The translations under genes and the position numbers were made by a program. Shown one piece after another: positions 22,661 to 64,000 of a stretch of DNA of 64,000 nt. The notes under the pieces are model-generated. The model saw only the letters and a list, made by a program, of their open reading frames with translations. It searched no databases and was not told the DNA's origin. How positions within the stretch are numbered: position 1 is the stretch's first letter; each line of letters begins with the position of its first letter. Origin of the DNA: a virus (taxonomy: Duplodnaviria; Heunggongvirae; Uroviricota; Caudoviricetes); the IMG/VR virus record IMGVR_UViG_3300027852_000034, positions 33,461-97,460 of that record. One strand, 5' to 3'.

Positions 22661-22678
22661 CAGGTATAACTATTGACA
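22661..22678 (+). promoter_or_regulatory. class-B promoter-like motif CAGGTATAACTATTGACA
   Basis: Same AGGTATAACTATTG core as the promoters of the Y-RNA arrays; upstream of gene 22717. Confidence 0.5.
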
Positions 22679-22716
22679 CAGAAAACTGAAATTAGAAAAC
22701 TGAGATTTGAGATTGA

Positions 22717-23181
22717 ATGCCTAAAGGAACTAAATTTTCTTTCGTTGATAAGAACGTATTACTGGCTCTAAGAAATGCCGACTTCATTACCTTCAACAAC
22801 ATAGAAAGAAAAAAATCTAAAATAATCTGTACTAAGGAAGTAGATGGTAGAAAACTGAACTACGAATTTGATGTGAACAGTGATCTTGAAATACCGAATC
22901 TGATACCTGAATTTTTGAAACTTACGAAAATCGTATATGCAAAGTACATAGCTCTATATGTACCTTATGACTGGGAAATACAATCTGTTTTTGGACTCTT
23001 GCAACTGAATGACGAATTAGAACTTATTTGGCAACCTGATGTACTCAGTGATCCTAAAAATGATTCACACTTAGATGCTCTGAAGTTAATCATTTATAGA
23101 AAGGAACAACGGTTCCATTTTAAATTAGGATTTTTTCTAAGCAACTCTAAGGATAGAATGATAAAGATAAATAATGAATAG
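22717..23181 (+). CDS. hypothetical protein
   Basis: ORF 154 aa. Confidence 0.5.
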   Translation: MPKGTKFSFVDKNVLLALRNADFITFNNIERKKSKIICTKEVDGRKLNYEFDVNSDLEIPNLIPEFLKLTKIVYAKYIALYVPYDWEIQSVFGLLQLNDELELIWQPDVLSDPKNDSHLDALKLIIYRKEQRFHFKLGFFLSNSKDRMIKINNE

Positions 23182-33002: not shown

Positions 33003-33671
33003 ATGACAACGGGGAATAACATGAGTAGTGATTGTAAAAAAGAACCAGAAGATGAATCTATTGCAGACTCTAAAGATAGAAAAACTCTTGCTACTGACTC
33101 TATTACAAATTTGTTAAAATTCGTAGGTGAAGATGTAACAAGAAACGGTCTTATTGAAACCCCTAAAAGAGTAGTTAAAGCCTACGAAGAATTGACCTGG
33201 GGTTTAAGGGTATCAGAAGATGAATTTTTCGACTCCATTGCGAAAGAGTTTGAACTTGCCTACGACCAAATGGTGGCAGTACGTTCTATTAGGTTTACCT
33301 CTATGTGTGAGCACCATTTGCTTCCTTTTATTGGTACTGCTACTGTCGCTTACATACCAGACGCGAAAAAGAATGGCATGGTAATAGGTATTAGCAAACT
33401 TGCTAGACTAGTAGAATATTATGCAGCTAGACCTCAAATTCAAGAACGTATGACCACTCAAATTGCAAAAGCATTAGAGACTTTAATGTCTCCGTTAGGT
33501 ACAGGTGTATGGATTGATGCTGTCCACACATGCATGTCTATCAGAGGTGTTAAAGCCGTGGGCGCCTCTACTGTAACCTCTGATTTACGTGGTGTGATAA
33601 GAGAAAATCCTGAAACTCGTAGTGAATTTTTATCCCTTGCAAGAAGTAACATGTTCCAAGGTATACAATGA
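33003..33671 (+). CDS. folE: GTP cyclohydrolase I
   Basis: [10 protein letters not shown] signature, LIETPKRV, length 222 aa. Confidence 0.8.
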
Positions 33672-34378: not shown

Positions 34379-35548
34379 ATGAGACGGATAATTTATTTAC
34401 CTCTTGAATCATACGAAGCACGATACACTAAACAACTATTGGATTGGAATGTAGATAGATTCAAAGAAAAAGAAATTCCATATATCTTGGTAGAAGGAAC
34501 TAGATTAACAGATGATGAGGATATAAATGTAGGCAAAGTTTTAGATGCACATGGACGTACATACTATTCGCTTACCCAAATAGCTAAATTAGTCAAACTT
34601 TTACAATCTGGAATAATCACTTACACAGATGTAATTTTTACTGAGGACATGTTCGCACCTGGTTACGAAGCACTTCCCTATATTTTTGAGCAACTTCCTG
34701 TTACACATAGACCCAGTTACTTTACCAGATGTCTAGCCCAATCTATCGACCCTGATGATTTCGTATTCCCCTGGCGAAATTGGATGCGCCATTATGAAAA
34801 ACTTGTAAGTACTACTGCTACAGGTATCATGATGGCTAATGATGCTATGGGATTACATATGGAAATTGCAATGGTAGATGATTGCCCTCTTTACGTTACA
34901 GGATTACCATTTGATAAAATTGAGGTTAGAAAACGCGCAGGGTACGTAACCTCTTTAAGAGCTAGAAAAAATCAAGTTATATTCAGTTCACGTTGGGATA
35001 CAGAAAAACAACCTGATTTCTACATGGATTTAATTGAGGCTTGTGCAGAAGAATGCCCTAAAATAGAGTTTTGCATATGCACAGGTAATAAAGAATTACG
35101 AAGCAATGACCGTACATATGTTCAACGTGCAAAGAAGTTGGAACAAGAAGGGAAGCTTAAAATTTATACAGGTCTTAAAAAGAATGAATACTACATGGTC
35201 CTTGCAGATTCAAAGGTACAGTTTAATTGTGCATTACAAGATTGGCAAAGCAACACACTGAATGAGGCTTCTGCTTTAGGTACTCAAAGTTTATGTCCAG
35301 CTTATAGATCTTTTCCACAAGCATTGAACAACAACAGTAAATATTTATATGTGCCCTGGTCTATTGCTGATGCAAAACAGAAACTCTTAGCGTTACTTGA
35401 TAATATTGAAGCAGATGATGATGTTTCATATCCTGCTGATGATCAGCATGAAACAATTAATCGTACTATAGATATTTTGATGGGTAACGGTTCTAAGTAT
35501 TTGTATAAACCTTACCATTATGAAACACCTGTTAAAGGTGCCGTATGA
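34379..35548 (+). CDS. hypothetical protein (389 aa) in 7-deazaguanine locus
   Basis: Long ORF; no PP-loop (not QueC); possible nucleotide/base-modifying enzyme; family not recognised. Confidence 0.55.
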   Translation: MRRIIYLPLESYEARYTKQLLDWNVDRFKEKEIPYILVEGTRLTDDEDINVGKVLDAHGRTYYSLTQIAKLVKLLQSGIITYTDVIFTEDMFAPGYEALPYIFEQLPVTHRPSYFTRCLAQSIDPDDFVFPWRNWMRHYEKLVSTTATGIMMANDAMGLHMEIAMVDDCPLYVTGLPFDKIEVRKRAGYVTSLRARKNQVIFSSRWDTEKQPDFYMDLIEACAEECPKIEFCICTGNKELRSNDRTYVQRAKKLEQEGKLKIYTGLKKNEYYMVLADSKVQFNCALQDWQSNTLNEASALGTQSLCPAYRSFPQALNNNSKYLYVPWSIADAKQKLLALLDNIEADDDVSYPADDQHETINRTIDILMGNGSKYLYKPYHYETPVKGAV

Positions 35549-35604
35549 TAATCTTAGGGCTTTCAATCCCGGCGATGTAGGTTCGATTCCTACCGGCACC
35601 TCCA
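35537..35604 (+). ncRNA. tRNA-like 3' fragment (acceptor stem + T-arm + CCA, no proper D/anticodon arms)
   Basis: GGTGCCG...GTAGGTTCGATTCCTAC-CGGCACC-T-CCA; overlaps last 12 nt of upstream CDS; 64-nt body too short for cloverleaf. Confidence 0.35.
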
Positions 35605-41409: not shown

Positions 41410-42981
41410 ATGTATGAACAGTTAAAACCCAAAAATCATAATGTAAAAGAGCCTGTACATTTCAAAGATTTTAGAATTGCTTTAGATAGTGGAGCGCACA
41501 CTCTCTATACCCAAATCTTTGTAGGTGTAGATAACGCCAAGGGTAAGCAAATGAAAAAGCTTTCCCAAGCAGACTACTCTTATATGGAAAGCGATGGATT
41601 CAAATCTTATTTAGAGGATTACATCCAATTCTTACTTGAACATGGTGATAAATATGATTTCTATGTAACACTGGATATTATCGGTGATGCAGAAAAATCC
41701 TGGGAAGTAACCGAATACATAGAGTCCTTTGGTCTTAAACCTCTTCCTGTGTATCACTGGGGAGAGACAACCTATTGGCTAGAAAAAATGGTCGAAAAAT
41801 ATGACTACGTAGGGATAGGTGGTCTAGGTCAAGAAGTCTCGAAAGAAAAATTCATCCCGTTCGCTGATAACGCTTTCAAGGTTGTGTGTGATAAATACGG
41901 ACATCCGAAAGTAAAGACCCACGGATTTGCTGTAGCCAGTCCTGAACTAATTGCCAAGTACCCCTGGCATACGTGTGATGCCAGCACATGGACTGCGCTA
42001 TCACGTAATGGTACTGTGTACATACCCAAGCCTATTATGAAAGGAAAGGAAGTAATTGATTTTAATTACCTTACTCCTCCTATGTCACTCCCTGTAACAG
42101 TTAGACGCTCCAATCATACCAATCACATGGATCATAAATCTCCTTTGTACTCTGATCTATTAGAAAAATACTTTGGTCAATACGGCTATACTTTTGAGGA
42201 TGTCAAACGTAGATATGACGCTAGGGATGTACTGAACATTAAATTCTTTAAACAGATGGAAGCTGCTGCAAAAGAAGTCCTTGAAAAAAATAACGGATAC
42301 GGAGAAGGTGCAAACATTATTCTTGCCGGAACTCCTAGTGGTGCTTCTACTAATCTATCACGTTTCGTAGATCTCTTAGGTGAAATAAATGAACCTGAAA
42401 CCTATTGGTTCGGAAGTTATTACTACAAACGACACAACCAGAATCTAATGGATTTACAAGAGAAGCATCTTGCAGGTGAAGATGCACGATTACTACAACT
42501 GCTTCCTAGACGCAGACGAAATGTTACGGTGATTGAGCCTACAGAACTTGTACATGATGAATTCCCTTTTACTAGGAAGGTTCCTGAGCAAAGTAAAGTT
42601 GCAGTTACAGGATCACCTACTTCTAAAATAACAGACAGGGAAGTACCTACCGATAAACCGATACAACGGAGAAAGTTATCTGTAAAACCAAGATCCCTTA
42701 CAAATCATGACTCTGACACATCAGCATGGCCGGATGCTTTAGAAGAACCAAAAAAGAACAAGCACATAACTGAGGCTGCTAAGACTGTAAACACTTTGAG
42801 GGAAGCCTTAAGTATCTCAAGTTTCGGTGCTGCGCATTTAACAGATGAGCAAATTGAAATAGAGGTACAACGTAGTATGATTAAGATTATTAATTCAATT
42901 AAATATATGGTATGCAAAAATACTAAAGCTTTTGCTACTACTGAAGTATCCATCAACGTAAATGGGAAGATCTATGAATAA
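41410..42981 (+). CDS. dpdA: DpdA-like DNA-guanine transglycosylase (TGT family)
   Basis: 523 aa; N-terminal region with TGT/DpdA-like pattern (DSGAHTLYTQIF..., FYVTLDIIGD, YVGIGGLGQ); co-located with folE/queD-like/queE. Confidence 0.6.
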   Translation: MYEQLKPKNHNVKEPVHFKDFRIALDSGAHTLYTQIFVGVDNAKGKQMKKLSQADYSYMESDGFKSYLEDYIQFLLEHGDKYDFYVTLDIIGDAEKSWEVTEYIESFGLKPLPVYHWGETTYWLEKMVEKYDYVGIGGLGQEVSKEKFIPFADNAFKVVCDKYGHPKVKTHGFAVASPELIAKYPWHTCDASTWTALSRNGTVYIPKPIMKGKEVIDFNYLTPPMSLPVTVRRSNHTNHMDHKSPLYSDLLEKYFGQYGYTFEDVKRRYDARDVLNIKFFKQMEAAAKEVLEKNNGYGEGANIILAGTPSGASTNLSRFVDLLGEINEPETYWFGSYYYKRHNQNLMDLQEKHLAGEDARLLQLLPRRRRNVTVIEPTELVHDEFPFTRKVPEQSKVAVTGSPTSKITDREVPTDKPIQRRKLSVKPRSLTNHDSDTSAWPDALEEPKKNKHITEAAKTVNTLREALSISSFGAAHLTDEQIEIEVQRSMIKIINSIKYMVCKNTKAFATTEVSINVNGKIYE

Positions 42982-56921: not shown

Positions 56922-58507
56922 TCTCTAAAAGAGCAATAGATGATTACCTTGCAAGAGATTTAGAAAGTTTTAACTGGATCAAAGAAGCTTCACATAAAGA
57001 AATGGATGAAGCTATTGCCCAGTTACCTGTTGAAGTAACTCTTAAACACCCGCCTTTTCGCCATCAAAAAGCTTCTTACTACATAGGTGCTTCCTTATCT
57101 AATTTTATGTATTTTTTAGATATGGGTTTGGGTAAAACTTTTATATCCTTAATGCTGATGTCTTATTATTTGCAGTTGAAAAAAATAGAAAAGATTTTAG
57201 TTGTAGTACCTAACGTAATCAATATAGAAGGTTGGGAAGAACAAATTCTAGAACATACTAACTTCGATTATGTATTATTGCATGGAAATAAAAATGAAAG
57301 AATGGAACTGCTAGATCAACATGCTCATATCTACGTAATTAATTATGACGGTCTTCAAACCATGATGACTGAATTACAACCAGCTAAGAAAAAAAAGAAA
57401 GGTAAAAAGGTAAAAGAAAGAACCCCTGTACCTGCATTAGTAAAAAATTTCACCTCAAAATTTCAAATGGTTGTATTTGATGAAATTCACAAAGCGAAAA
57501 ACACTACCTCTTTAACCTACTCACTTTGCCATTCCATTTCTAAAAAATGTGAATATAGATACGGATTAACAGGAACACCGTTTGGAAGAGACCCTATAGA
57601 TTTATGGGCACAGTTTCAATTAATAGATCACGGTGAAACATTAGGTCTTAAAGGTATGTACCAATCTGCATTTTTCACAACAAAGAAAAATTTTTGGGGA
57701 GGGTGGGAGCACAAATTTAAAAAGGCTATGGAAGAAGAGTTACATACCACTCTACAAAATAGATCTCTTAGATACGAGGATATTGAATGTGAGGATCTTC
57801 CTAAGCGTGTACATAAAGTAGTTCCTGTGTCCCTATCCTTAGATGCAATTACATATTATCGAGATATGTTGCAACAGGCTGCGGATACTAAGGACAATGA
57901 TGTACGGAGACAAGAAAATTTCTACATCAAAATGAGGGAGATAGCATCAGGTTTCGTATATGAAAAAGATGAGGACGGTAAAAAATTTACAATAACATTC
58001 TCCAATAATGAAAAACTTGATGCCTTAGATAATCTAATAGAGGATATGCCTAAAACCTCTAAGATGGTTATTTTTCATGTGTTCAATAGCAGTGGTGAGG
58101 TAATCTGTAATCATCTGAAGAAAAAGAAAATATCTTATGCAGCATTAAATTCTACAGAGAAGGATACAGCAGGGCAGTTACGTAAATTTAAAAATCAGAA
58201 AACCTGCAAGTTTCTTGTGCTAAATATAGCTACAGGTTCTACAGGATTAAATTTACAGATTGCAAATTATTGCGTATTCTATGAACCTACTGATAGACCT
58301 ATATGGCAACGTCAAGCCGAGAAACGAGTACATAGACAAGGACAAACAAAACGAGTTTACTATTACCACTTCGTAACAAAAGGTACTGTAGAAGAACGCA
58401 TCAGAACATTTTTAAAAGAAGGCAAAGATTTATTCGGTGCATTGATTGAAGGTAAGCAAGGGTATAAACAATTGATGGGTTTATGTGACAGTAAAACAAA
58501 ACCATAA
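56918..58507 (+). CDS. SNF2-family helicase
   Basis: Motif I DMGLGKT; motif II VFDEIHKAKN; C-terminal helicase domain; 529 aa. Confidence 0.8.
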   Translation: MISKRAIDDYLARDLESFNWIKEASHKEMDEAIAQLPVEVTLKHPPFRHQKASYYIGASLSNFMYFLDMGLGKTFISLMLMSYYLQLKKIEKILVVVPNVINIEGWEEQILEHTNFDYVLLHGNKNERMELLDQHAHIYVINYDGLQTMMTELQPAKKKKKGKKVKERTPVPALVKNFTSKFQMVVFDEIHKAKNTTSLTYSLCHSISKKCEYRYGLTGTPFGRDPIDLWAQFQLIDHGETLGLKGMYQSAFFTTKKNFWGGWEHKFKKAMEEELHTTLQNRSLRYEDIECEDLPKRVHKVVPVSLSLDAITYYRDMLQQAADTKDNDVRRQENFYIKMREIASGFVYEKDEDGKKFTITFSNNEKLDALDNLIEDMPKTSKMVIFHVFNSSGEVICNHLKKKKISYAALNSTEKDTAGQLRKFKNQKTCKFLVLNIATGSTGLNLQIANYCVFYEPTDRPIWQRQAEKRVHRQGQTKRVYYYHFVTKGTVEERIRTFLKEGKDLFGALIEGKQGYKQLMGLCDSKTKP

Positions 58508-58510
58508 AAA

Positions 58511-58556
58511 CATAGGTATAACTATTGCAAGTAAGCAAATATTATATATAATGTAA
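58511..58556 (+). promoter_or_regulatory. bipartite class-B promoter of Y-RNA array 1 (AGGTATAACTATTGCAAGT + ATATTATATATAATGTAA)
   Basis: Almost identical to the 61425 promoter; precedes first Y-RNA unit by ~20 nt. Confidence 0.6.
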
Positions 58557-58574
58557 TACAACAATTTTAGAAAA

Positions 58575-58684
58575 GCAGAACCGAAGAGACTGGATTATCT
58601 ACTGACAAGAAGTACGGGCAATAGTAACAGTCCTTTATTGTTGAAAGACAATATAAATTAAACCAGTATCATAACTTGTTCTGT
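58575..58684 (+). ncRNA. Y RNA-like unit 0
   Basis: Closing stem CAGAAC/GTTCTG; CCGAA-GAGACTGG-ATTATC; 3' AACTTG; followed by T-run. Confidence 0.7.
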
Positions 58685-58699
58685 TTACTTTTTTGAATG

Positions 58700-58825
58700 T
58701 AGGGCCGAAGTAATTAGGTTATCACACACTGTGGTACGTAGGTTCGAATCCTGCCTCTTCTAACGAAGAGTGGTCGAGTGGTTAGACAATAGTCCAAAAT
58801 GCCTACTTACAACAACTTGCCTTAC
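58700..58825 (+). ncRNA. Y RNA-like unit 1 with embedded tRNA-half-like module
   Basis: Stem AGGGC/GCCTT (G-U); CCGAA-GTAATTAG-GTTATC; internal GTAGGTTCGAATCCTGC T-arm, CTCTTC-TAAC-GAAGAG hairpin, D-loop-like GTCGAGTGGTTAGAC; 3' AACTTG. Confidence 0.7.
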
Positions 58826-58841
58826 TACTAGTTTTAGAATA

Positions 58842-58974
58842 TAGGACCGAAGTAATTAGATTATCGCGGAGCTGTTATACATAGGTTCGAATCCTGTCTC
58901 CCCGACACTAACGGGGAGTAGCCGAGCGGAGCAGGCGGCAGCAATATAACTCTATTTGCAATCAACTTGTCCTA
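58842..58974 (+). ncRNA. Y RNA-like unit 2 with embedded tRNA-half-like module
   Basis: Stem TAGGAC/GTCCTA; CCGAA-GTAATTAG-ATTATC; T-arm ATAGGTTCGAATCCTGT; CTCCCCG-ACACTAA-CGGGGAG hairpin; 3' AACTTG. Confidence 0.7.
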
Positions 58975-59099
58975 TTTTATTTTATGAGATTTTTAAATGA
59001 AGTCGTATAAACTTTTACAAAATTATTTAGGATATCTCAGAACCTTTGCAATGAAAACTGGGACTCCTATAATCACTGCTACACAAAAAGAGGCTAGAA

Positions 59100-59408
59100 A
59101 TGACTGTTTCAAAAAAAGAAGAACTTCAAAAGAAAGCACTTGAGGTTTTTAATAAACTCTCTGCAAAAAAGAAGTTTAAACGTTTGGCTAAAAGAGATTT
59201 TAAAATCTCTCTGTGTGAAACACATGATAACTATACCACAGTTATATTGTCCACAGGAAAAATCAGTTACGTAGGGACTGCAAAATGTAATCCTAATTTT
59301 GATGAAGTCGATCAAGATAGAGGTACATCTATTGCAATGTCCAGAGCCTTGTCACGTATGTTAGATACGAAAGACTCAGGTGTTCCAAAGTTATCTGTCT
59401 CACCGTAA
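59100..59408 (+). CDS. hypothetical protein
   Basis: ORF 102 aa between Y-RNA array 1 and tRNA-Leu. Confidence 0.5.
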   Translation: MTVSKKEELQKKALEVFNKLSAKKKFKRLAKRDFKISLCETHDNYTTVILSTGKISYVGTAKCNPNFDEVDQDRGTSIAMSRALSRMLDTKDSGVPKLSVSP

Positions 59409-59413
59409 TATTT

Positions 59414-59499
59414 GCGGAGATGGCGGAATTGGTAGACGCAAGGGATTTAAAATCCCTCGATCTTAGATCGTGAGGGTTCAAGTCCCTCTCTCCGCACCA
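59414..59499 (+). tRNA. tRNA-Leu(TAA), CCA encoded
   Basis: Acceptor GCGGAGA/TCTCCGC; D-arm GCGGAATTGGTAGACGC; anticodon arm AGGGA-TTTAAAA-TCCCT; long variable arm; T-arm GAGGGTTCAAGTCCCTC; ACCA. Confidence 0.85.
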
Positions 59500-59521
59500 T
59501 TTACTTTTACAGGGGATTCAC

Positions 59522-59788
59522 ATGTTAAAACATAAGTTTAAGCATAAGTTAGGTGCTGAGGCAAAAGATATAATCACAGGTTTTGAAGGTGTCATATATA
59601 GCCGTACTCAATGGTTACACAACTGTAACACCTACGGTTTGCAGCCTAAAGAATTGAAAGATGGTGTACCTCAAAAGTTAACCTACTTTGATGAGCCTCA
59701 ATTAAAGGTTATAAAAGCTAAGGTTATAAAACCTAAAAGGGATACAGGTGGACCTGTACGAGAAGTACCTGCTACTAATAGAGAGTAG
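59522..59788 (+). CDS. hypothetical protein
   Basis: ORF 88 aa, CAGGGGATTCACATG RBS. Confidence 0.45.
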   Translation: MLKHKFKHKLGAEAKDIITGFEGVIYSRTQWLHNCNTYGLQPKELKDGVPQKLTYFDEPQLKVIKAKVIKPKRDTGGPVREVPATNRE

Positions 59789-59794
59789 AAAAAA

Positions 59795-59869
59795 GCTCCA
59801 TTAGATCAGCGGTTAGATCCCAACCCTTTCAAGGTTGTAACTCCAGTTCGATTCTGGGATGGAGCACCA
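59795..59869 (+). tRNA. tRNA-Glu(TTC), CCA encoded
   Basis: Acceptor GCTCCAT/ATGGAGC; D-arm GATCAGCGGTTAGATC; anticodon arm CAACC-CTTTCAA-GGTTG; T-arm CCAGTTCGATTCTGG; ACCA. Confidence 0.85.
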
Positions 59870-59886
59870 ATTAAAGAAGATGGAAC

Positions 59887-60054
59887 ATGTACTACTATGT
59901 GATTCATTTAACAGAAACAGATGGTGACTGTATGGCACACTGTTGCCAATCTCCTAATGAAGTTAAGAAATATGTAAAAAAGCATCGCTTTGATAAAGAC
60001 GATTATATTCTTATTAAAGGAATGAGAACTAAATTAAACGAATGTGAAAACTAA
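59887..60054 (+). CDS. small Cys-containing protein (55 aa)
   Basis: Manually read ORF MYYYVIHLTETDGDCMAHCCQSPNEVKKYVKKH...; below track cutoff. Confidence 0.3.
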   Translation: MYYYVIHLTETDGDCMAHCCQSPNEVKKYVKKHRFDKDDYILIKGMRTKLNECEN

Positions 60055-60191
60055 GAACATGTGGCAATGGTTTCGTAAATTATTAGGTGGTACTTGGTAT
60101 TTAGTAGACAATGAAGGATGCCATTGTTCTTATTGGACACGTAAGAAACCGACTAGTAGTTGGTACTATATACGAAAGACAGAGAAATACT

Positions 60192-60270
60192 AGGGGCATG
60201 GCGAAGCTGGCCTAACGCACAAGGTTTTGATCCTTGCATTTCGATGGTTCGACTCCATCTGCCCCTTCCA
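60192..60270 (+). tRNA. tRNA-Gln(TTG), CCA encoded
   Basis: Acceptor AGGGGCA/TGCCCCT; D-arm GGCGAAGCTGGCCTAACGCA (like E. coli tRNA-Gln); anticodon arm CAAGG-TTTTGAT-CCTTG; T-arm GATGGTTCGACTCCATC; TCCA. Confidence 0.8.
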
Positions 60271-60275
60271 ATTTA

Positions 60276-60346
60276 GGTGTTAGTAGCTTAATGGCAAAGC
60301 TGCTCCGAGCGGAGTGAAAAGGAAGTTCGATTCTTTCTCTAACACA
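60276..60346 (+). ncRNA. aberrant tRNA-like element (good acceptor, D- and T-arms; anticodon arm with 4-nt loop)
   Basis: GTGTTAG/CTAACAC acceptor; D-arm GCTTAATGGCAAAGC; GCTCC-GAGC-GGAGT hairpin in place of anticodon arm; T-arm GGAAGTTCGATTCTTTC; no CCA. Confidence 0.4.
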
Positions 60347-60349
60347 AGG

Positions 60350-60815
60350 TTTAACAAGGTGGGAATACTGGAACATTGGAGATGAAAGTATTCTTTAAGA
60401 CGGGTGCCGGAGCTGACCAGGTCGTTAAATATTGTTTCTCAGCTTACGCTCCTTCTCGTAATCGGTGTGAATCCGATCATCTTGACCCAGACAGCGGTGA
60501 ACCGGACATGGATTGAGGGATAACTTAGTGACACCTACAATTCACGGTTATGCACTAATGGCCAATCCTGCTTCAAGGTTTGAATCCTTGCACCGCTTAT
60601 TAAATGAGGATATATGCCCGAATCCCTGTATGGTTAAGACATATATTCAATAGTCCAGAGGACCACAGAACGGTGTATGTGGAGCTAAAGCCCTGTCGCT
60701 ATGAAACATACACTTGCCGTAAGGATTGGGATGTTCGAAGCCGGAACTGATCGAGGCTCAAACCTGGCAAGTAGGTGGAAAGCCTACACTTATTTAACAA
60801 TCCTTTAATTTTTTA
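60350..60815 (+). ncRNA. ~460-nt ORF-poor structured non-coding segment within the tRNA cluster
   Basis: Multiple stable hairpins (GAATACT...AGTATTC; ATCGGTGTGAATCCGAT; CAAGGTTTGAATCCTTG T-arm-like); AGCGGTG ... CACCGCT long-range acceptor-like pairing spanning ~115 nt; no ORF >=60 aa. Confidence 0.35.
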
Positions 60816-60825
60816 GAGGTGGAGA

Positions 60826-60968
60826 TGACTGCTTTTCAAGAAGGTGTAGAAGCATACCATCGCGGAGATGATTTCAATAATGACAATCCGTTTGATGAAG
60901 AAGATTACCAACATGCAGAATGGCGGGCTGGCTGGGAAGCTGGCGCAGAATGTGAAGAGGAACTTTAA
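60826..60968 (+). CDS. small acidic protein (47 aa)
   Basis: Manually read ORF MTAFQEGVEAYHRGDDFNNDNPFDEEDYQHAEW...; AGAGGTGGAGATG RBS. Confidence 0.3.
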
Positions 60969-60970
60969 AA

Positions 60971-61282
60971 ATGCTTACTAGAAGAGATGTTCTAAAAGGT
61001 TTGATAGCACTGGCAGCAGCGCCTGCTATTGTAAAAGCTGAAAGTATTATGAAGATCAAACCTCTAATCATACCAGCAGGTTTTACCTGGGATGAACACA
61101 CCGTTGCAACCGTATCATTAGAGATCACTGACGGTATACATGCAGGAGATTATCTGCGTATCTATAATGCAGACACTGGAGAAATACTAGTAAACCAGAT
61201 TTTTAAATGTGATGAGGACATTATAACCTTGTCACCTCAGAGAAACCCTATAATCGTAACATCAGTTAGAACAATATGGTAA
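60971..61282 (+). CDS. small secreted protein with twin-arginine (Tat) signal
   Basis: MLTRRDVLKGLIALAAAPAIVKA: RRxVLK Tat motif + hydrophobic region + AxA cleavage site. Confidence 0.55.
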   Translation: MLTRRDVLKGLIALAAAPAIVKAESIMKIKPLIIPAGFTWDEHTVATVSLEITDGIHAGDYLRIYNADTGEILVNQIFKCDEDIITLSPQRNPIIVTSVRTIW

Positions 61283-61294
61283 ATTATCGCCTCC

Positions 61295-61369
61295 GCCAGC
61301 TTAGTTTAAGTGGTATAACAGTAGATTTGTAATCTTCCATCATCAGTTCGATTCTGATAGCTGGCTCCA
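61295..61369 (+). tRNA. tRNA-Thr(TGT), CCA encoded
   Basis: Acceptor GCCAGCT/AGCTGGC; anticodon loop TTTGTAA; T-arm ATCAGTTCGATTCTGAT; TCCA; one mismatch in anticodon stem. Confidence 0.65.
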
Positions 61370-61424
61370 ATTAACAACAGGAAAACCAATGGTTAATTAA
61401 AACAATTAATTAAAACACAAAAAC

Positions 61425-61480
61425 CACAGGTATAACTATTGCAAGTTTAGAAATATTATATATAATATAAGTTATATAGT
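61425..61480 (+). promoter_or_regulatory. bipartite class-B promoter of Y-RNA array 2
   Basis: CACAGGTATAACTATTGCAAGT...ATATTATATATAATATAA, near-duplicate of 58511..58556. Confidence 0.6.
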
Positions 61481-61489
61481 GTTTTGAAA

Positions 61490-61583
61490 GATGAACCGAA
61501 TATTAAGGGTTATCGCCGATGAAAGTGGCTACATGCCATTTGTAGGTTCAACTCCTACACTCCTTAATGAATACTTGTTCATC
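61490..61583 (+). ncRNA. Y RNA-like unit 3
   Basis: Stem ATGAAC/GTTCAT; CCGAA-TATTAAGG-GTTATC; internal T-arm-like GTAGGTTCAACTCCTAC; 3' TACTTG. Confidence 0.7.
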
Positions 61584-61595
61584 CACAGATTTAAA

Positions 61596-61664
61596 TGATG
61601 AGCCGAATGCTGGTAGGTTATCTTTTTGGGAGCTAATCCCTACAAGCGCGTTACTTGCTCATTT
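61596..61664 (+). ncRNA. Y RNA-like unit 4 (minimal)
   Basis: Stem ATGAGC/GCTCAT; CCGAA-TGCTGGTA-GGTTATC; TTACTTG 3' block. Confidence 0.7.
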
Positions 61665-61678
61665 AATGTTTTAAAATT

Positions 61679-61805
61679 ACGGACCGAATTGGATTGGGTT
61701 ATCCATGCAAGGAGGATGTCAGGGGTTCGATTCCCTTCTTATCTGAAAAGATAAGTAGCTCAGTTGGCAGAGCGCCTAAACCCCAATCCTAAATAACTTG
61801 TCCGT
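61679..61805 (+). ncRNA. Y RNA-like unit 5 with permuted-order tRNA-like insert
   Basis: Stem ACGGAC/GTCCGT; CCGAA-TTGGATTG-GGTTATC; insert order T-arm (AGGGGTTCGATTCCCTT) - CTTATCT-GAAA-AGATAAG acceptor-like hairpin - TA - D-arm GCTCAGTTGGCAGAGC; 3' AACTTG. Confidence 0.7.
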
Positions 61806-61840
61806 ATATCATTTAAGAGGAGTTTAAAATTAAGGGCCGA

Positions 61841-61938
61841 ATTGTTATGGGTTCTCTGACTGTTTATCAGGCAATATGGGTTCGACACCCATCTAGTGTG
61901 TGGACATAGCTTCCCCCAAAACTAATAACTTGCCCTTA
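61841..61938 (+). ncRNA. Y RNA-like unit 6 with anticodon-arm(GTT)+T-arm module
   Basis: Stem TAAGGGC/GCCCTTA; CCGAA-TTGTTATG-GGTTCTC; TCTGA-CTGTTTA-TCAGG and ATGGGTTCGACACCCAT hairpins; TTCCCCC tract; 3' AACTTG. Confidence 0.7.
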
Positions 61939-61952
61939 TACCGTTTAAATAT

Positions 61953-62056
61953 ATGGACCGAATTTAATTAGGTTATCATTAGTTCGACTCTAATCTACTG
62001 CTTAGGTAGTAGAGCCCTATAGGTAGGGCACCCCTAGTTATATGCAACTTGTCCAT
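61953..62056 (+). ncRNA. Y RNA-like unit 7
   Basis: Stem ATGGAC/GTCCAT; CCGAA-TTTAATTA-GGTTATC; T-arm-like ATTAGTTCGACTCTAAT; CACCCCTAG tract; 3' AACTTG. Confidence 0.7.
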
Positions 62057-62065
62057 ATTGTTTTA

Positions 62066-62138
62066 TATGAGCCGAATGTGTTGGGTTATCTCTCGGACTT
62101 ACACTCTGATCACCCCCGATACAGATCACTCGCTCATT
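62066..62138 (+). ncRNA. Y RNA-like unit 8 (minimal)
   Basis: Stem ATGAGC/GCTCAT; CCGAA-TGTGTTGG-GTTATC; N8-GG pairs with CCCGATACA; CACCCCC tract. Confidence 0.7.
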
Positions 62139-62150
62139 TTAATTTGTAAT

Positions 62151-62215
62151 TATGAGCCGAATAGGTTTAGGTTATCCTTCTAAGATACCCCCTAGACCTG
62201 ATTAACTTGCTCATT
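62151..62215 (+). ncRNA. Y RNA-like unit 9 (minimal)
   Basis: Stem ATGAGC/GCTCAT; CCGAA-TAGGTTTA-GGTTATC; AGGTTTAGG pairs with CCTAGACCT; TACCCCC tract; CTGATT-AACTTG. Confidence 0.75.
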
Positions 62216-62228
62216 TTAAGTTGAAATT

Positions 62229-62295
62229 GTGAGCCGAAAAGTGCAGGGTTATCTAACCTTCCAATGAACCCCTGTCTCTGATTAACTTGCTCACA
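62229..62295 (+). ncRNA. Y RNA-like unit 10 (minimal)
   Basis: Stem GTGAGC/GCTCAC; CCGAA-AAGTGCAG-GGTTATC; AACCCCTG tract; CTGATT-AACTTG. Confidence 0.75.
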
Positions 62296-62308
62296 CATAT
62301 TTAAAATG

Positions 62309-62336
62309 AGCCTTGCAATTTTGCAGGGCTTTTTTG
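62309..62336 (+). terminator. rho-independent terminator ending Y-RNA array 2
   Basis: GAGCCTTGCAA-TT-TTGCAGGGCT hairpin + T5. Confidence 0.7.
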
Positions 62337-62357
62337 TGAAAGAAAGGAGAATCAAAA

Positions 62358-64000
62358 ATGGCTGCACCATATGGCGACATTACTTCTAAAAAGAAGACCG
62401 CACAATCTCAAGCTATCCCAGGTAGAGAAGCAGAGATGGAAAAAAACAACGCAGGTGGATACACCTTTTTATCTAATGATTGGGATCAATTACTGCGATT
62501 CCTTATCATCGGTTCCATAGGTGGGACATACTATGTGACTCAGAATAAACTGACTTTGGATAACACAAGCCATATCAAAGGACTTGTCAAAGAAGATGGA
62601 ATTCGGGTTGTCAATGAAGTTGTCCGTGTATCTGATGAAGGTTTAGCCCTGCGTAATGACCCTGCACTGTTTGTACTGGCAATATGTGCTGCTGATGGAA
62701 ATATAGATGTACGCCAGCATGCTTTAGAGAACTTACCTAAAGTAGCTAGAACTGCTACCCATCTGTTTACTTTTATCTCATATGTAAAAGAAATGAGAGG
62801 TTGGGGACGTGCGTTAAAGAACGCTGTAGCAAACTGGTATCAAAAACGTAAGGCTCCTAGCTTGGCATATCAGATTGTCAAGTATCGTAACAGAGAAGGT
62901 TTCACTCACCGTGACGTACTTCGGTTAACAAAGCCTAAGCCAAAGGATGATGAGCATGACTTCCTGTACGGCTATGCTGCTAACAAAGTAGTCTTTGATG
63001 ATGGTAAGTTTATCAAATCTGAAAAAGATGCTAAGGATACTGTAATTCAATTACCTGCAGGATTAGATATCATCAAAGGTGTCGAATTAATAAAGCAGGA
63101 AGGTTTGTCTCGTACTCAAGTAGTTAATCTGATTTCAGATTATAATCTGACACATGAGATGATTCCTAACGAGTACAAAGGTGAGCCTGTTGTTTGGGAA
63201 GCACTGTTAGAGCGTATGCCACTTACTGCTATGATTCGTAACTTAGGTAAAATGACATCTATAGGTCTTTTAAAGCCTATGTCTAATGCATCTAAGCTGG
63301 TTGTAAACAAGTTGCGTGACCAGGAATACTTGCAGAAAAGCAGAGTACATCCAATTGCTGTACTTATTGCATTAAAAGTATATGCAAACGGTGCTGGTAT
63401 TAAAGGTAGCTTGGCTTGGAATCCAGTCCAAACTATTAATGATGCTCTTGAAGGTGGATTTTATAAAGCTTTTAAGAATGTAGAGCCTACTGGTAAAAAT
63501 ACATTACTTGCATTGGATGTATCAGGTTCTATGGGTTGGAATGATGTGATGGGCATTAACTTTATGAAATGCTCTGAACTGACAGCAGCTATGGCTTTGG
63601 TAACCGCAAATGTGGAGCCTAACTATATGATCTTTGGGTTCTCTGATCGGTTTAAAGCGTTGGATATTTCTGCTTCTGACTCTTTGATAGACGCTACTAG
63701 AAAAGTAGCCAATCGTACATTCGGACGTACAGATTGTGCATTACCTATGGAGTACGCTAAGCAGCAAAAATTGGATGTAGATTCTTTCTTTATTTATACA
63801 GACAATGAAACTTGGGCTGGTCGTATTCAACCATCACAAGCTTTGATTGCATACCGCAAAAAGTCTGGTAATGATGCTAAGCTGGCAGTAATTGCAGCAG
63901 CAGCAACCCGCTTTACAATTGCAGATCCAAAAGATCCTGGTATGTTAGATGTCTGCGGATTCAGTTCAGATACACCCAAAGTGTTAAGCGGGTTGCTGCT
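62358..64000 (+). CDS. rsr: Ro60/Rsr ortholog: TROVE domain + C-terminal vWA (MIDAS DVSGSM); 3'-partial at window end
   Basis: GAAAGGAGAATCAAAAATG RBS; N-terminus QLLRFLIIGSIGGTYYVTQNKLTLDN...LRNDPALFVLAICAAD aligns with human Ro60 [26 protein letters not shown]...KQEPMLFALAIGCAAD; HRDVLRLTKPKP vs HKDLLRLSHLKP; MIDAS LALDVSGSM. Confidence 0.85.
   Translation, partial: MAAPYGDITSKKKTAQSQAIPGREAEMEKNNAGGYTFLSNDWDQLLRFLIIGSIGGTYYVTQNKLTLDNTSHIKGLVKEDGIRVVNEVVRVSDEGLALRNDPALFVLAICAADGNIDVRQHALENLPKVARTATHLFTFISYVKEMRGWGRALKNAVANWYQKRKAPSLAYQIVKYRNREGFTHRDVLRLTKPKPKDDEHDFLYGYAANKVVFDDGKFIKSEKDAKDTVIQLPAGLDIIKGVELIKQEGLSRTQVVNLISDYNLTHEMIPNEYKGEPVVWEALLERMPLTAMIRNLGKMTSIGLLKPMSNASKLVVNKLRDQEYLQKSRVHPIAVLIALKVYANGAGIKGSLAWNPVQTINDALEGGFYKAFKNVEPTGKNTLLALDVSGSMGWNDVMGINFMKCSELTAAMALVTANVEPNYMIFGFSDRFKALDISASDSLIDATRKVANRTFGRTDCALPMEYAKQQKLDVDSFFIYTDNETWAGRIQPSQALIAYRKKSGNDAKLAVIAAAATRFTIADPKDPGMLDVCGFSSDTPKVLSGLL

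Follow-up and report, generated by a model that had tools for sequence, protein, structure and literature searches.

Animals, bacteria and several phages possess ribonucleoproteins of Ro60 and Y RNA, and in the RYPER complex of Deinococcus radiodurans (Rsr-Yrn1-PNPase) the stem of the Y RNA binds Ro60 while its other end recruits an effector. Here we analyse a 64,000-nucleotide window (positions 33,461 to 97,460 of the IMG/VR record IMGVR_UViG_3300027852_000034) from an uncultured phage of ~158 kb, in which a gene for the RNA-binding protein Ro60 is preceded by eleven different small genes for predicted Y RNAs. The parent contig, L001, is ENA ERZ27237542 (158,116 bp). Phage Ro60 genes accompanied by a few Y RNAs are already known, and the present locus is the largest cluster that we found of this known system; judged from its sequence, it very probably encodes a phage ribonucleoprotein of Ro60 and Y RNA in which the Y RNAs are unusually numerous and diverse.

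The locus resembles RYPER in pairing an orthologue of the Deinococcus Ro60 with Y RNA, which makes that complex the mechanistic template used here. In contrast to RYPER, no PNPase gene is seen in the window, the effector, if there is one, would be a host protein, and the apical modules of the RNAs are diverse and for the most part unlike Yrn1. Vertebrate Y RNAs present Ro60 with a 7-bp helix, one bulged C and, on the strand facing it, a bulge of 3 nt, and they have a UUAUC loop motif in common with the nematode stem-bulge RNAs (sbRNAs), which, like the phage RNAs, form a multi-gene family, of ~18 members (Kowalski and Krude, PMC4726728). Among bacteria and phages, Chen et al. (2014, PMC4201824) place YrlA beside Ro60 in 254 bacteria and 22 phages, with 355 RNAs in total, and in Rsr-YrlA/YrlB loci such as those of Salmonella Typhimurium and Mycobacterium smegmatis the noncoding RNA genes adjoin Ro60 on the same strand, as they do here. 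Those bacterial loci, however, hold one or two RNA genes rather than 11, and no rtcBA RNA-repair operon was found within the 64-kb window or the 5 kb downstream of it.

Reports on three phages are also relevant. The Ro60 of Thermus phage phiLo binds the phage RNAs Yrl1 and Yrl2 as well as host PNPase in vitro, the RNAs having been found through their CGAA motif (PMC12135203), and in phiLo, as in the window, Y-like RNAs lie directly upstream of the phage Ro60 gene. The phiLo protein is nevertheless distant (E = 1.5e-6 to 9kop over ~130 residues), its RNAs number two against eleven, and the available part of that report describes neither an array structure nor a vertebrate-type UUAUC module. In Listeria phage CKA15, three highly transcribed regions upstream of an Rsr-like gene have been proposed to be Y RNAs (PMC12282133), and some of the 'tRNA genes' near the Ro60-like gene of coliphage Bas63 have been suggested to be the same (PMC11482910).

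The Ro60 gene and the units upstream of it

The open reading frame (ORF) that follows the second array extends four codons beyond the end of the window and encodes 551 amino acids on L001, where a cell-wall hydrolase gene comes directly after it. The initial annotation had recognised here, just downstream of the second array's terminator, a Ro60/TROVE protein with a vWA MIDAS motif, and profile searches agree: Pfam TROVE (PF05731) matches with 146.8 bits against a gathering cut-off of 23 (E = 1.5e-42), vWA_Ro60 (PF25045) with 186.1 bits against 27.7 (E = 6e-55), and the MIDAS residues (DxSxS...T...D; D387, S389, S391, T458 and D482) do not vary across 25 aligned homologues (A4). Matches to structures in the PDB each span approximately residues 21-544, those to human Ro60 (9nen, E = 6.8e-111), its Xenopus counterpart (1yvp, 1.9e-109) and Deinococcus Rsr (2nvo, 4.2e-102). 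By sequence, the phage protein is a bona fide Ro60 homologue, though not an equivalog of the bacterial Rsr seed set.

Eleven units precede this gene in two arrays, at 58574-58976 (three units) and 61489-62296 (eight units), the second of which ends 62 nt before the Ro60 ATG. The 5' motif CCGAA-N8/9-(G/A)TT(A/C)TC occurs eleven times within 58581-62253, the rest of the 64 kb holding one further copy (24675) without a 3' partner, and in all eleven cases the 3' motif A(A/C)T(T/C)G, together with the complement of the bases before CCGAA, is found 40-110 nt downstream. From stem to stem the units measure 63-133 nt, and their minimum-free-energy folds are alike throughout, with a terminal helix, an internal loop, an upper helix and a variable apical part. 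Close inspection reveals a single plan: a 7-bp terminal helix, a bulged C, G-U/A-U pairs, an upper helix of ~9 bp, GGUUAUC, the variable apical module and (A)ACUUG. Motif search and folding thus recover, at the same places, the eleven similarly built units of the initial annotation; its description of them as interleaved with tRNAs has to be corrected, given that the tRNA genes sit between the two arrays and not among the units.

On this one constant stem the apical modules fall into about six structural kinds (Table 1). Units 2, 3 and 6 carry a full tRNA-like domain; units 4, 7 and 8 combine a T-arm with other hairpins and have no D-arm; unit 1 has two hairpins, and units 5 and 9-11 end in short C-rich loops, both tRNA-like arms being absent from these last five. 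To judge from their sequences, the short C-rich loops resemble minimal animal-type Y RNAs. ToxI-like antitoxin repeats and CRISPR-like repeats were considered and ruled out, the units being structured and different in length and sequence. Tandem tRNA genes were likewise ruled out, since the only matches of tRNA models in the arrays fuse the D-arm of one unit with the T-arm of the next, an artefact already described by Chen et al. (PMC4201824).

Both arrays are preceded by a 39-nt promoter-like box with the pattern AGGTATAACTATTGCAAG-N-AAATATTATATATAAT, whose two copies are identical over its 34 fixed positions and vary only at the five degenerate ones; no match to this pattern is expected by chance, and the same box stands before the arrays of three related phages known from metagenomes (L002, L004 and L005, introduced below). 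A third, degenerate copy lies at 22662-22679 (+; AGGTATAACTATTGACAC, with 3 mismatches and the consensus TTGACA), just upstream of ORF 22717-23181, and the box may therefore mark a small promoter class instead of being exclusive to Y RNA arrays. What stands of the dedicated bipartite promoter proposed initially is the box common to both arrays; strictly dedicated to them it is not. Within the arrays the units are separated by AU-rich spacers of 10-26 nt, mostly 10-17 nt, and the consensus UUU(A/U)AAA (UUUAAA) is found 3-9 nt before each unit, including the first one after each promoter, which we infer to be a processing signal. The U-runs that had been taken as a transcription feature of every unit are tracts of these spacers rather than terminators; a hairpin of terminator type comes after unit 11 alone, and it is kept with compensatory changes in L002, L004 and L005.

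Covariation of the stem and its likeness to known Y RNAs

Covariation was assessed on 34 units, namely the 11 of the window together with 10 from L002, 7 from L004 and 6 from L005. The C8-G pair and the bulged C9 are invariant in this set and are followed by G10-U (or A-U), A11-U and a 3-nt (N)AC bulge. In an ungapped alignment of the terminal helix, 97% of the cells are paired and five of the nine pairs show double changes, a result that none of 500 shuffles reached, and when the partner strands are slid by 1-3 columns only 31-50% of the cells still pair. With the upper helix in register, the two helices together are 92% paired and 14 of their 18 pairs are compensatory. A wider set of 63 units (33 sources, made up of the window and 32 loci), the alignment of which was fitted to the model, gave 92.5% and 15 of 18.

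In MAFFT alignments the upper helix lost the register of its 3' strand, both with mini-constructs (A1) and with 14 short units (A3), and this strand was therefore aligned by its predicted pairing (A2). Since such a register is fitted, a permutation test of cognate against non-cognate strands was run as a control. For the window units, cognate strands pair with -9.6 kcal/mol in the upper helix and -8.1 kcal/mol in the terminal helix, as against -4.9 and -2.9 kcal/mol for non-cognate ones, and for neither helix did any of 20000 permutations match the cognate arrangement; L002, L004 and L005 gave the same result. Both the covariation of the terminal stem between copies and the pairing of the upper stem, as first noted in the initial annotation's reading of the sequence, are hence upheld. 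The Ro60-binding-type stem architecture is real, and both of its helices co-vary strongly.

To what extent are these units like the Y RNAs of animals? The published ends of mammalian Y RNA1 (GGCTGGTCCGAAGGTAGTGAGTTATC and CTTCTCACTACTGCACTTGACTAGTCT; PMC3928194) fit the columns of A2, with the 7-bp helix, the bulged C, the GA/UU pairs, one unpaired A, a 9-nt upper strand with its complement and UUAUC, and the sole difference from the phage consensus is a bulge of 4 nt (GCAC) in place of 3 nt (AAC). More generally, vertebrate Y RNAs and nematode sbRNAs have the same CCGAA-GUUAUC spacing, 9-bp upper helix, 3'-strand bulge and ACUUG on the 3' strand as the phage units. The proposed label 'metazoan-like' is accordingly apt for the stem module, which agrees with Y RNA1 column for column, and does not reach beyond it, the metazoan Rfam family giving no match (below). 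The phage units also appear to be expressed from a bacterial-type promoter as a polycistronic array, whereas metazoan Y RNAs are single genes transcribed by RNA polymerase III (Pol III) with a U-tail for La, and tRNA-like apical domains are present in the phage units and not in metazoan Y RNAs. With bacterial YrlA the phage units have in common the long stem of the 5' and 3' ends with CGAA and, in units 2, 3 and 6, the tRNA-like domain of T-arm and D-arm; unlike YrlA, five of the eleven have no tRNA-like part at all, and unlike the Rfam YrlA consensus the phage stem contains GGUUAUC and ACUUG.

At gathering thresholds only tRNAs were found with Rfam. Under permissive settings, YrlA (RF02553) matches unit 6 over its full length (40.0 bits, E = 1.5e-6, gathering score 69) and units 2 and 3 at ~19 bits (19.5 and 18.5), with no match to the other units; the nematode stem-bulge RNA model RF01656 gives 22.2 bits for unit 2 (E = 0.31) and 20.1 bits for unit 6 (E = 1.1), below its gathering threshold of 38, and the four short units match no Rfam family even at permissive E-values. 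By the curated thresholds no unit counts as a member of any Rfam family, and of the kinship with Y_RNA and YrlA models that had been anticipated only sub-threshold YrlA matches were obtained.

Reading the locus as a Ro60-Y RNA system draws on features that are observed, namely the sequence architecture, the covariation, the linkage to Ro60 and the conservation of most unit classes, and several points weigh against it. No unit reaches an Rfam gathering score, and the metazoan model Y_RNA (RF00019) has no match at E <= 10 in either 58400-62400 or 62060-62300. The protein scores 465.8 bits with NCBIfam NF041674 ('RNA-binding protein Rsr'), short of the equivalog cut-off of 900. The register of A2 rests on predicted pairing, a bias that the permutation control handles without being a phylogenetic test of the R-scape type. 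Finally, the terminator-like hairpin lies between the second array and the Ro60 gene, so that co-expression of the two is not guaranteed.

Table 1. Positions of the features in the window (position 1 is its first nucleotide); bit scores marked R1 and R2 are those of the covariance models described in the following section.
Feature	Position	Strand	Description and evidence
Promoter-like box 1	58514-58552	+	AGGTATAACTATTGCAAG...TATAAT; TTGCAA (-35), 16-nt spacer, TATAAT (-10); sigma-70 scan 10/12
Y RNA unit 1	58574-58685	+	Two apical hairpins, no T-arm; motifs, fold; R2 47.0 bits
Y RNA unit 2	58698-58826	+	YrlA-like: T-arm (GGTTCGAATCC), middle stem, D-arm-like hairpin; R2 46.4 bits
Y RNA unit 3	58840-58976	+	YrlA-like: T-arm, stem CTCCCCG/CGGGGAG, D-arm-like hairpin; R2 40.3 bits
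Inter-array region	59414-61369	+	ARAGORN, Rfam, ORF list; genomic context
tRNA-Leu(TAA)	59414-59499	+	ARAGORN/Rfam
tRNA-Glu(TTC)	59795-59869	+	ARAGORN/Rfam
tRNA-Gln(TTG)	60192-60270	+	ARAGORN/Rfam
tRNA-like element	60277-60346	+	ARAGORN/Rfam
tRNA-Thr(TGT)	61295-61369	+	ARAGORN/Rfam
Promoter-like box 2	61428-61466	+	Sequence pattern, sigma-70 scan
Y RNA unit 4	61489-61584	+	Hairpin and T-arm (GGTTCAACTCC); R1 36.5 bits, R2 46.3 bits
Y RNA unit 5	61596-61664	+	Minimal, short apical loop; R2 53.1 bits; no Rfam match
Y RNA unit 6	61677-61807	+	Fully YrlA-like: T-arm, middle stem, D-arm TAGCTCAGTTGGCAGAGC; R2 51.4 bits
Y RNA unit 7	61830-61939	+	Hairpin and T-arm (GGTTCGACACC); loop variant GGTTCTC; R2 47.9 bits
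Y RNA unit 8	61951-62058	+	T-arm-like hairpin (AGTTCGACTCT) and two more hairpins; R2 50.6 bits; orthologues L002_8, L005_3
Y RNA unit 9	62065-62139	+	Minimal; 3' motif variant CACTCG; R2 52.2 bits; no Rfam match
Y RNA unit 10	62150-62216	+	Minimal; upper helix AGGTTTAGG/CCTAGACCT; R2 62.6 bits, best overall; no Rfam match
Y RNA unit 11	62227-62296	+	Minimal; R2 50.4 bits; no Rfam match
Intrinsic-terminator-like hairpin	62308-62337	+	10 bp (hairpin 62308-62331), then T-run; between array and Ro60
Ro60 (TROVE + vWA) gene	62358-64000	+	ATG at 62358, Shine-Dalgarno present; 547 of 551 codons inside the window

Related phages and viral Ro60 loci

In a collection of 5.8 billion proteins, the closest relatives of the phage Ro60 are 76%, 67%, 66% and 56% identical to it, and contigs were examined for three of them, at 76% (L002), one at 67% (L004) and 56% (L005). 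The arrays of these phages comprise 3 + 7, 3 + 4 and 3 + 3 units, respectively (10, 7 and 6 in total), compared with 3 + 8 in the window. All four loci follow the same order, in which a promoter box and three units are succeeded by small ORFs with or without tRNAs, a second promoter box, further units, the terminator and Ro60; L005 has CACA in place of CGAA. For seven of the eleven window units (3-8 and 10) the best match in L002 occupies the same array position (63-83% identity). The apical inserts of units 3 and 7 are 78% and 83% identical to those of L002_3 and L002_7, and that of unit 4 is 82% identical to that of L004_1; unit 1 has a counterpart in L002_1 by array position and architecture, although its apical insert is not the best match. 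That most apical modules are kept position by position in such diverged relatives indicates that the classes are individually maintained and are not drifting duplicates.

This conservation bears on the idea that tandem duplication produced the array as a side effect, with no diversification of function, one or two copies being functional and most of them decaying. Units 10 and 11 are alike, and L002 is short of one unit at this place, which points to a recent duplication or loss, and copy number varies from 6 to 11 among the relatives, as such an origin would predict. Nevertheless, the helices and motifs are intact in all eleven units, the order of the distinct apical classes is kept even though the Ro60 proteins of these phages share only 56-76% identity, and with a covariance model (R2, below) every window unit scores between 40 and 63 bits, leaving no obviously degenerate copy; we regard wholesale decay as improbable.

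We then asked how unusual eleven units are. A search of IMG/VR with the single Ro60 protein returned no related loci, and a profile of 25 homologues was used instead, which identified at least 401 viral contigs with a Ro60 relative; 80 of these loci were kept, with 6-kb flanks. A first covariance model of the stem module (R1) missed three units of ~130 nt owing to its length limit. The model rebuilt from the 63 units of 33 sources collected with R1 (R2) recovers 11 of 11 units in the window and all 10, 7 and 6 in L002, L004 and L005. Applied to the window, the relatives, six loci of cultured phages and the 80 IMG/VR loci (1.18 Mb, both strands, E <= 0.01), R2 gave 196 matches, every one of them on the strand of Ro60 and none on the other, and most within ~2.5 kb of the gene. 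The matches are distributed over 63 of the 90 sources (the window and 89 loci), 27 loci having none, and neither R1 nor R2 finds additional copies elsewhere in the 64-kb window. Copy numbers were taken from R2 because loose regular expressions produced false positives in coding regions, 3 of them in the window and ~0.4 per locus on the opposite strand.

Units were present in 58 of the 80 IMG/VR loci, often as tight tandem arrays of 3-6: by R2, 22 loci had none, 16 had one, 17 two, 10 three, 6 four, 6 five and 3 six, counts that are lower bounds in view of the limited sensitivity, the 6-kb flanks and the truncation of some contigs. The three six-unit loci (L032, L079 and L087) are tight tandem arrays with spacers of ~10-30 nt. 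Cultured actinophages, in which the Ro60 genes are embedded among tRNA genes, also carry unannotated units: Microbacterium phage Big4 has five by the model and seven by motif, Gordonia phage Sixama four by motif and one by the model, Mycobacterium phage Catera three by motif (GGTTACC variants) and Streptomyces phage LukeCage two. These have the same architecture as the window units, lie on the Ro60 strand and are often in tight tandem; they differ in being GC-richer and in 3' motif variants such as ACAUGU and ACACGCU. Eleven units, with ten in the nearest relative and no more than 6-7 elsewhere, and their arrangement in two promoter-driven arrays 2.5 kb apart set the window apart. Given that clusters of 3-6 are common and that actinophages have such units too, the array represents the upper end of a common pattern and is not singular. 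The earlier statement that one or two Y RNAs are the rule at known loci does not hold for the sequences themselves, since 3-6 tandem units are common at viral Ro60 loci and cultured actinophages have 2-7; of the novelty ascribed to the array, what remains is the largest known example of a widespread and unannotated feature. In the literature that we could search, neither tandem arrays nor short Y RNAs of vertebrate type are described for phages, and an earlier mention is possible.

Tandem Y RNA clusters thus form an annotation gap, being common at viral Ro60 loci yet unannotated, and at least one seems to have been called a tRNA in a cultured phage. In Big4, an annotated 68-nt tRNA-Ser(cga) (L011 3131-3198; ON637770.1 100198-100265) falls inside a Y-like unit (L011 3127-3264) that has the terminal helix, GCCGAA, GGTTATC, a T-arm and a D-arm, and it is probably a mis-annotated Y RNA. 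A neighbouring 68-nt tRNA-Ala call (2233-2300) abuts another unit (2092-2228).

The strand bias in the survey also speaks to whether the units are RNAs at all, as opposed to DNA-level or cis-acting elements, for instance REP-like repeats, recombination sites or transcription and processing punctuation for an operon of tRNAs and ORFs. Tight packing with AU-rich spacers and an operon-like arrangement of genes on a single strand would suit such elements. They would not be expected, however, to match on the Ro60 strand in 196 of 196 cases, to preserve two helices by compensatory changes while the primary sequence diverges, or to show RNA-type pairing with frequent G-U on one strand only. The tRNA-like substructures, moreover, match a known RNA family and the architecture is that of experimentally characterised Y RNAs, and we consider this explanation highly improbable.

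Possible roles and genomic setting

The likeliest function of the units is that of adaptor and gate RNAs for Ro60, and characterised Ro60 systems suggest how they may be transcribed and processed, bind Ro60, engage partners and serve the phage. Two copies of one sigma-70-type promoter would give two precursor transcripts with 3 and 8 Y RNAs, in which a host endonuclease (e.g., RNase E) would cut the AU-rich spacers before exonucleases trim the products back to the terminal helix. Each mature RNA would offer the same Ro60 docking site (the 7-bp helix, bulged C, G-U/A-U pairs, 3-nt bulge, ~9-bp helix and GGUUAUC) and bear a different apical module. The stem would bind the outer face of the phage Ro60 ring and gate its cavity, while the apical module would tether Ro60 to a partner, which could be PNPase, as in RYPER, or tRNA-recognising enzymes in the case of the tRNA-like classes. 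As a result, host RNA decay, quality control or repair might be redirected during infection, possibly against RNA-targeting or other defences; the phage might benefit through the turnover of host RNA, the quality control of rRNA or tRNA, the repair of RNA attacked by nucleases, or counter-defence. The tRNA-like modules (units 2, 3 and 6, and in part 4, 7 and 8) and their position among phage tRNA genes point to partners or targets related to tRNA.

An extension of this scheme, which we put forward tentatively and think has a limited chance of being right, is that the locus is a combinatorial adaptor library, one Ro60 ring being programmed by eleven Y RNAs of about six classes with different partners. 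The short C-rich loops would then engage host exoribonucleases and the tRNA-like modules tRNA-recognising enzymes or tRNA-targeting defence nucleases, amounting to a multiplexed phage system for RNA decay, RNA repair or anti-defence. As a corollary, the vertebrate-type stem (lower helix with bulged C, 9-bp upper helix and UUAUC) would be an ancient Ro60-docking module of viruses and animals and not a metazoan feature tied to DNA replication.

The tRNA-like modules lend themselves to another interpretation, namely that the units work chiefly as decoys or sponges that mimic tRNA and do not depend on Ro60, soaking up host anticodon nucleases, tRNA-modifying enzymes or tRNA-sensing defences, with Ro60 serving only as a stabilising chaperone; this would also account for their place beside the tRNA genes of the phage. 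A T-loop (GTTCRA) hairpin in 6 of the 11 units, three of which have both T-arm and D-arm, is consistent with this idea, as are the arrays flanking a tRNA cluster and a tRNA-like element with a tetraloop as its anticodon loop, the tRNA clusters around actinophage Ro60 genes, and the report that the Bas63 Ro60-like protein counters the ppl defence system (PMC11482910). We judge it unlikely, since the part of every unit that does not vary is the Ro60 docking site and not the tRNA-like portion. Five of the eleven, including the four minimal units that are the best model scorers, have no tRNA-like element and still keep the Ro60-type stem, and units are found only near Ro60 genes and on their strand.

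Whichever partners a Ro60-Y RNA system of this kind may have, the occurrence of a vertebrate-type stem, UUAUC included, in phages bears on the published view of bacterial Y RNAs as non-homologous to vertebrate ones and on the meaning of the UUAUC motif, hitherto linked to DNA replication. The likeness between phage and animal stems could reflect either homology or convergence on the same Ro60 surface. A constant docking stem carrying six kinds of apical module, in an order kept across diverged relatives, constitutes a natural experiment showing which modules matter and makes the locus a compact system for identifying their partners.

All genes of the window lie on one strand, and those upstream of the arrays encode a DNA polymerase, a clamp, SSB, UvsX/RecA, an SbcD-like nuclease, DnaB helicase and an SNF2 helicase; the window is a replication region of a phage. 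A megablast search with 58505-64000 gave no match among cultured phages and the DNA polymerase is at most 36% identical to that of any cultured phage, so that by sequence the phage is novel. Directly upstream of the clamp and DNA polymerase genes, a 523-aa protein (41410-42981, +) matches phage queuine tRNA-ribosyltransferase families (phrog_887, E = 9e-36) and, judged by its position, may be a DpdA-like enzyme for 7-deazaguanine DNA modification.

Between the arrays, the tRNA genes are accompanied by six small ORFs and ~470 nt of non-coding sequence. The tRNA-like element has normal acceptor, D and T arms, and its 'anticodon' stem ends in a 4-nt loop (GCTCC-GAGC-GGAGT); in ARAGORN it is listed as tRNA-??? 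with an anticodon of 2 nt, its Rfam tRNA score is 27.4 bits against a cut-off of 29, and it could be a tRNA mimic unable to decode. The non-coding stretch that follows (60347-60818, 472 nt, +) has no ORF of convincing length, no Rfam match and a fold no better than that of shuffled sequence (z = -0.02); a part of it, 60493-60601, is 81% identical to L002 8775-8884 and includes a T-arm-like hairpin (CAAGGTTTGAATCCTTG). Downstream of this, a 49-aa ORF (60819-60968, +) gives a sub-threshold match to ribosome modulation factor (Pfam RMF, E = 1.1e-4; 22.6 bits, cut-off 27.9), and a 103-aa ORF (60971-61282, +) carries a signal peptide of the twin-arginine (TAT) type (23.7 bits with Pfam TAT_signal, which exceeds the cut-off), which is unusual for a small phage protein in a region of tRNAs and noncoding RNAs.

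In each of the four related phages the first array is succeeded by a small ORF of ~100 aa (window 59100-59408, +; L005 552-833; L002 7651-7950; L004 2825-3124). Neither Pfam nor PHROG assigns it significantly to a family, its products in the window and L005 have in common the motif KCNPN-D...G...A-SRAL, and it may be a conserved partner of the locus. By eye, the non-coding sequence between the arrays of L005 (833-990) and L004 (3660-3890) contains a common hairpin-like element, GCAGCCGG(A/G)GC...CCGGCA. Lastly, a weak tRNA-Glu(TTC)-like call at 35537-35604 (+), with a truncated D arm and an Rfam score of 31.7 bits, overlaps ORF 34379-35548 at its 3' end; a second, good tRNA-Glu(TTC) gene is the one at 59795.

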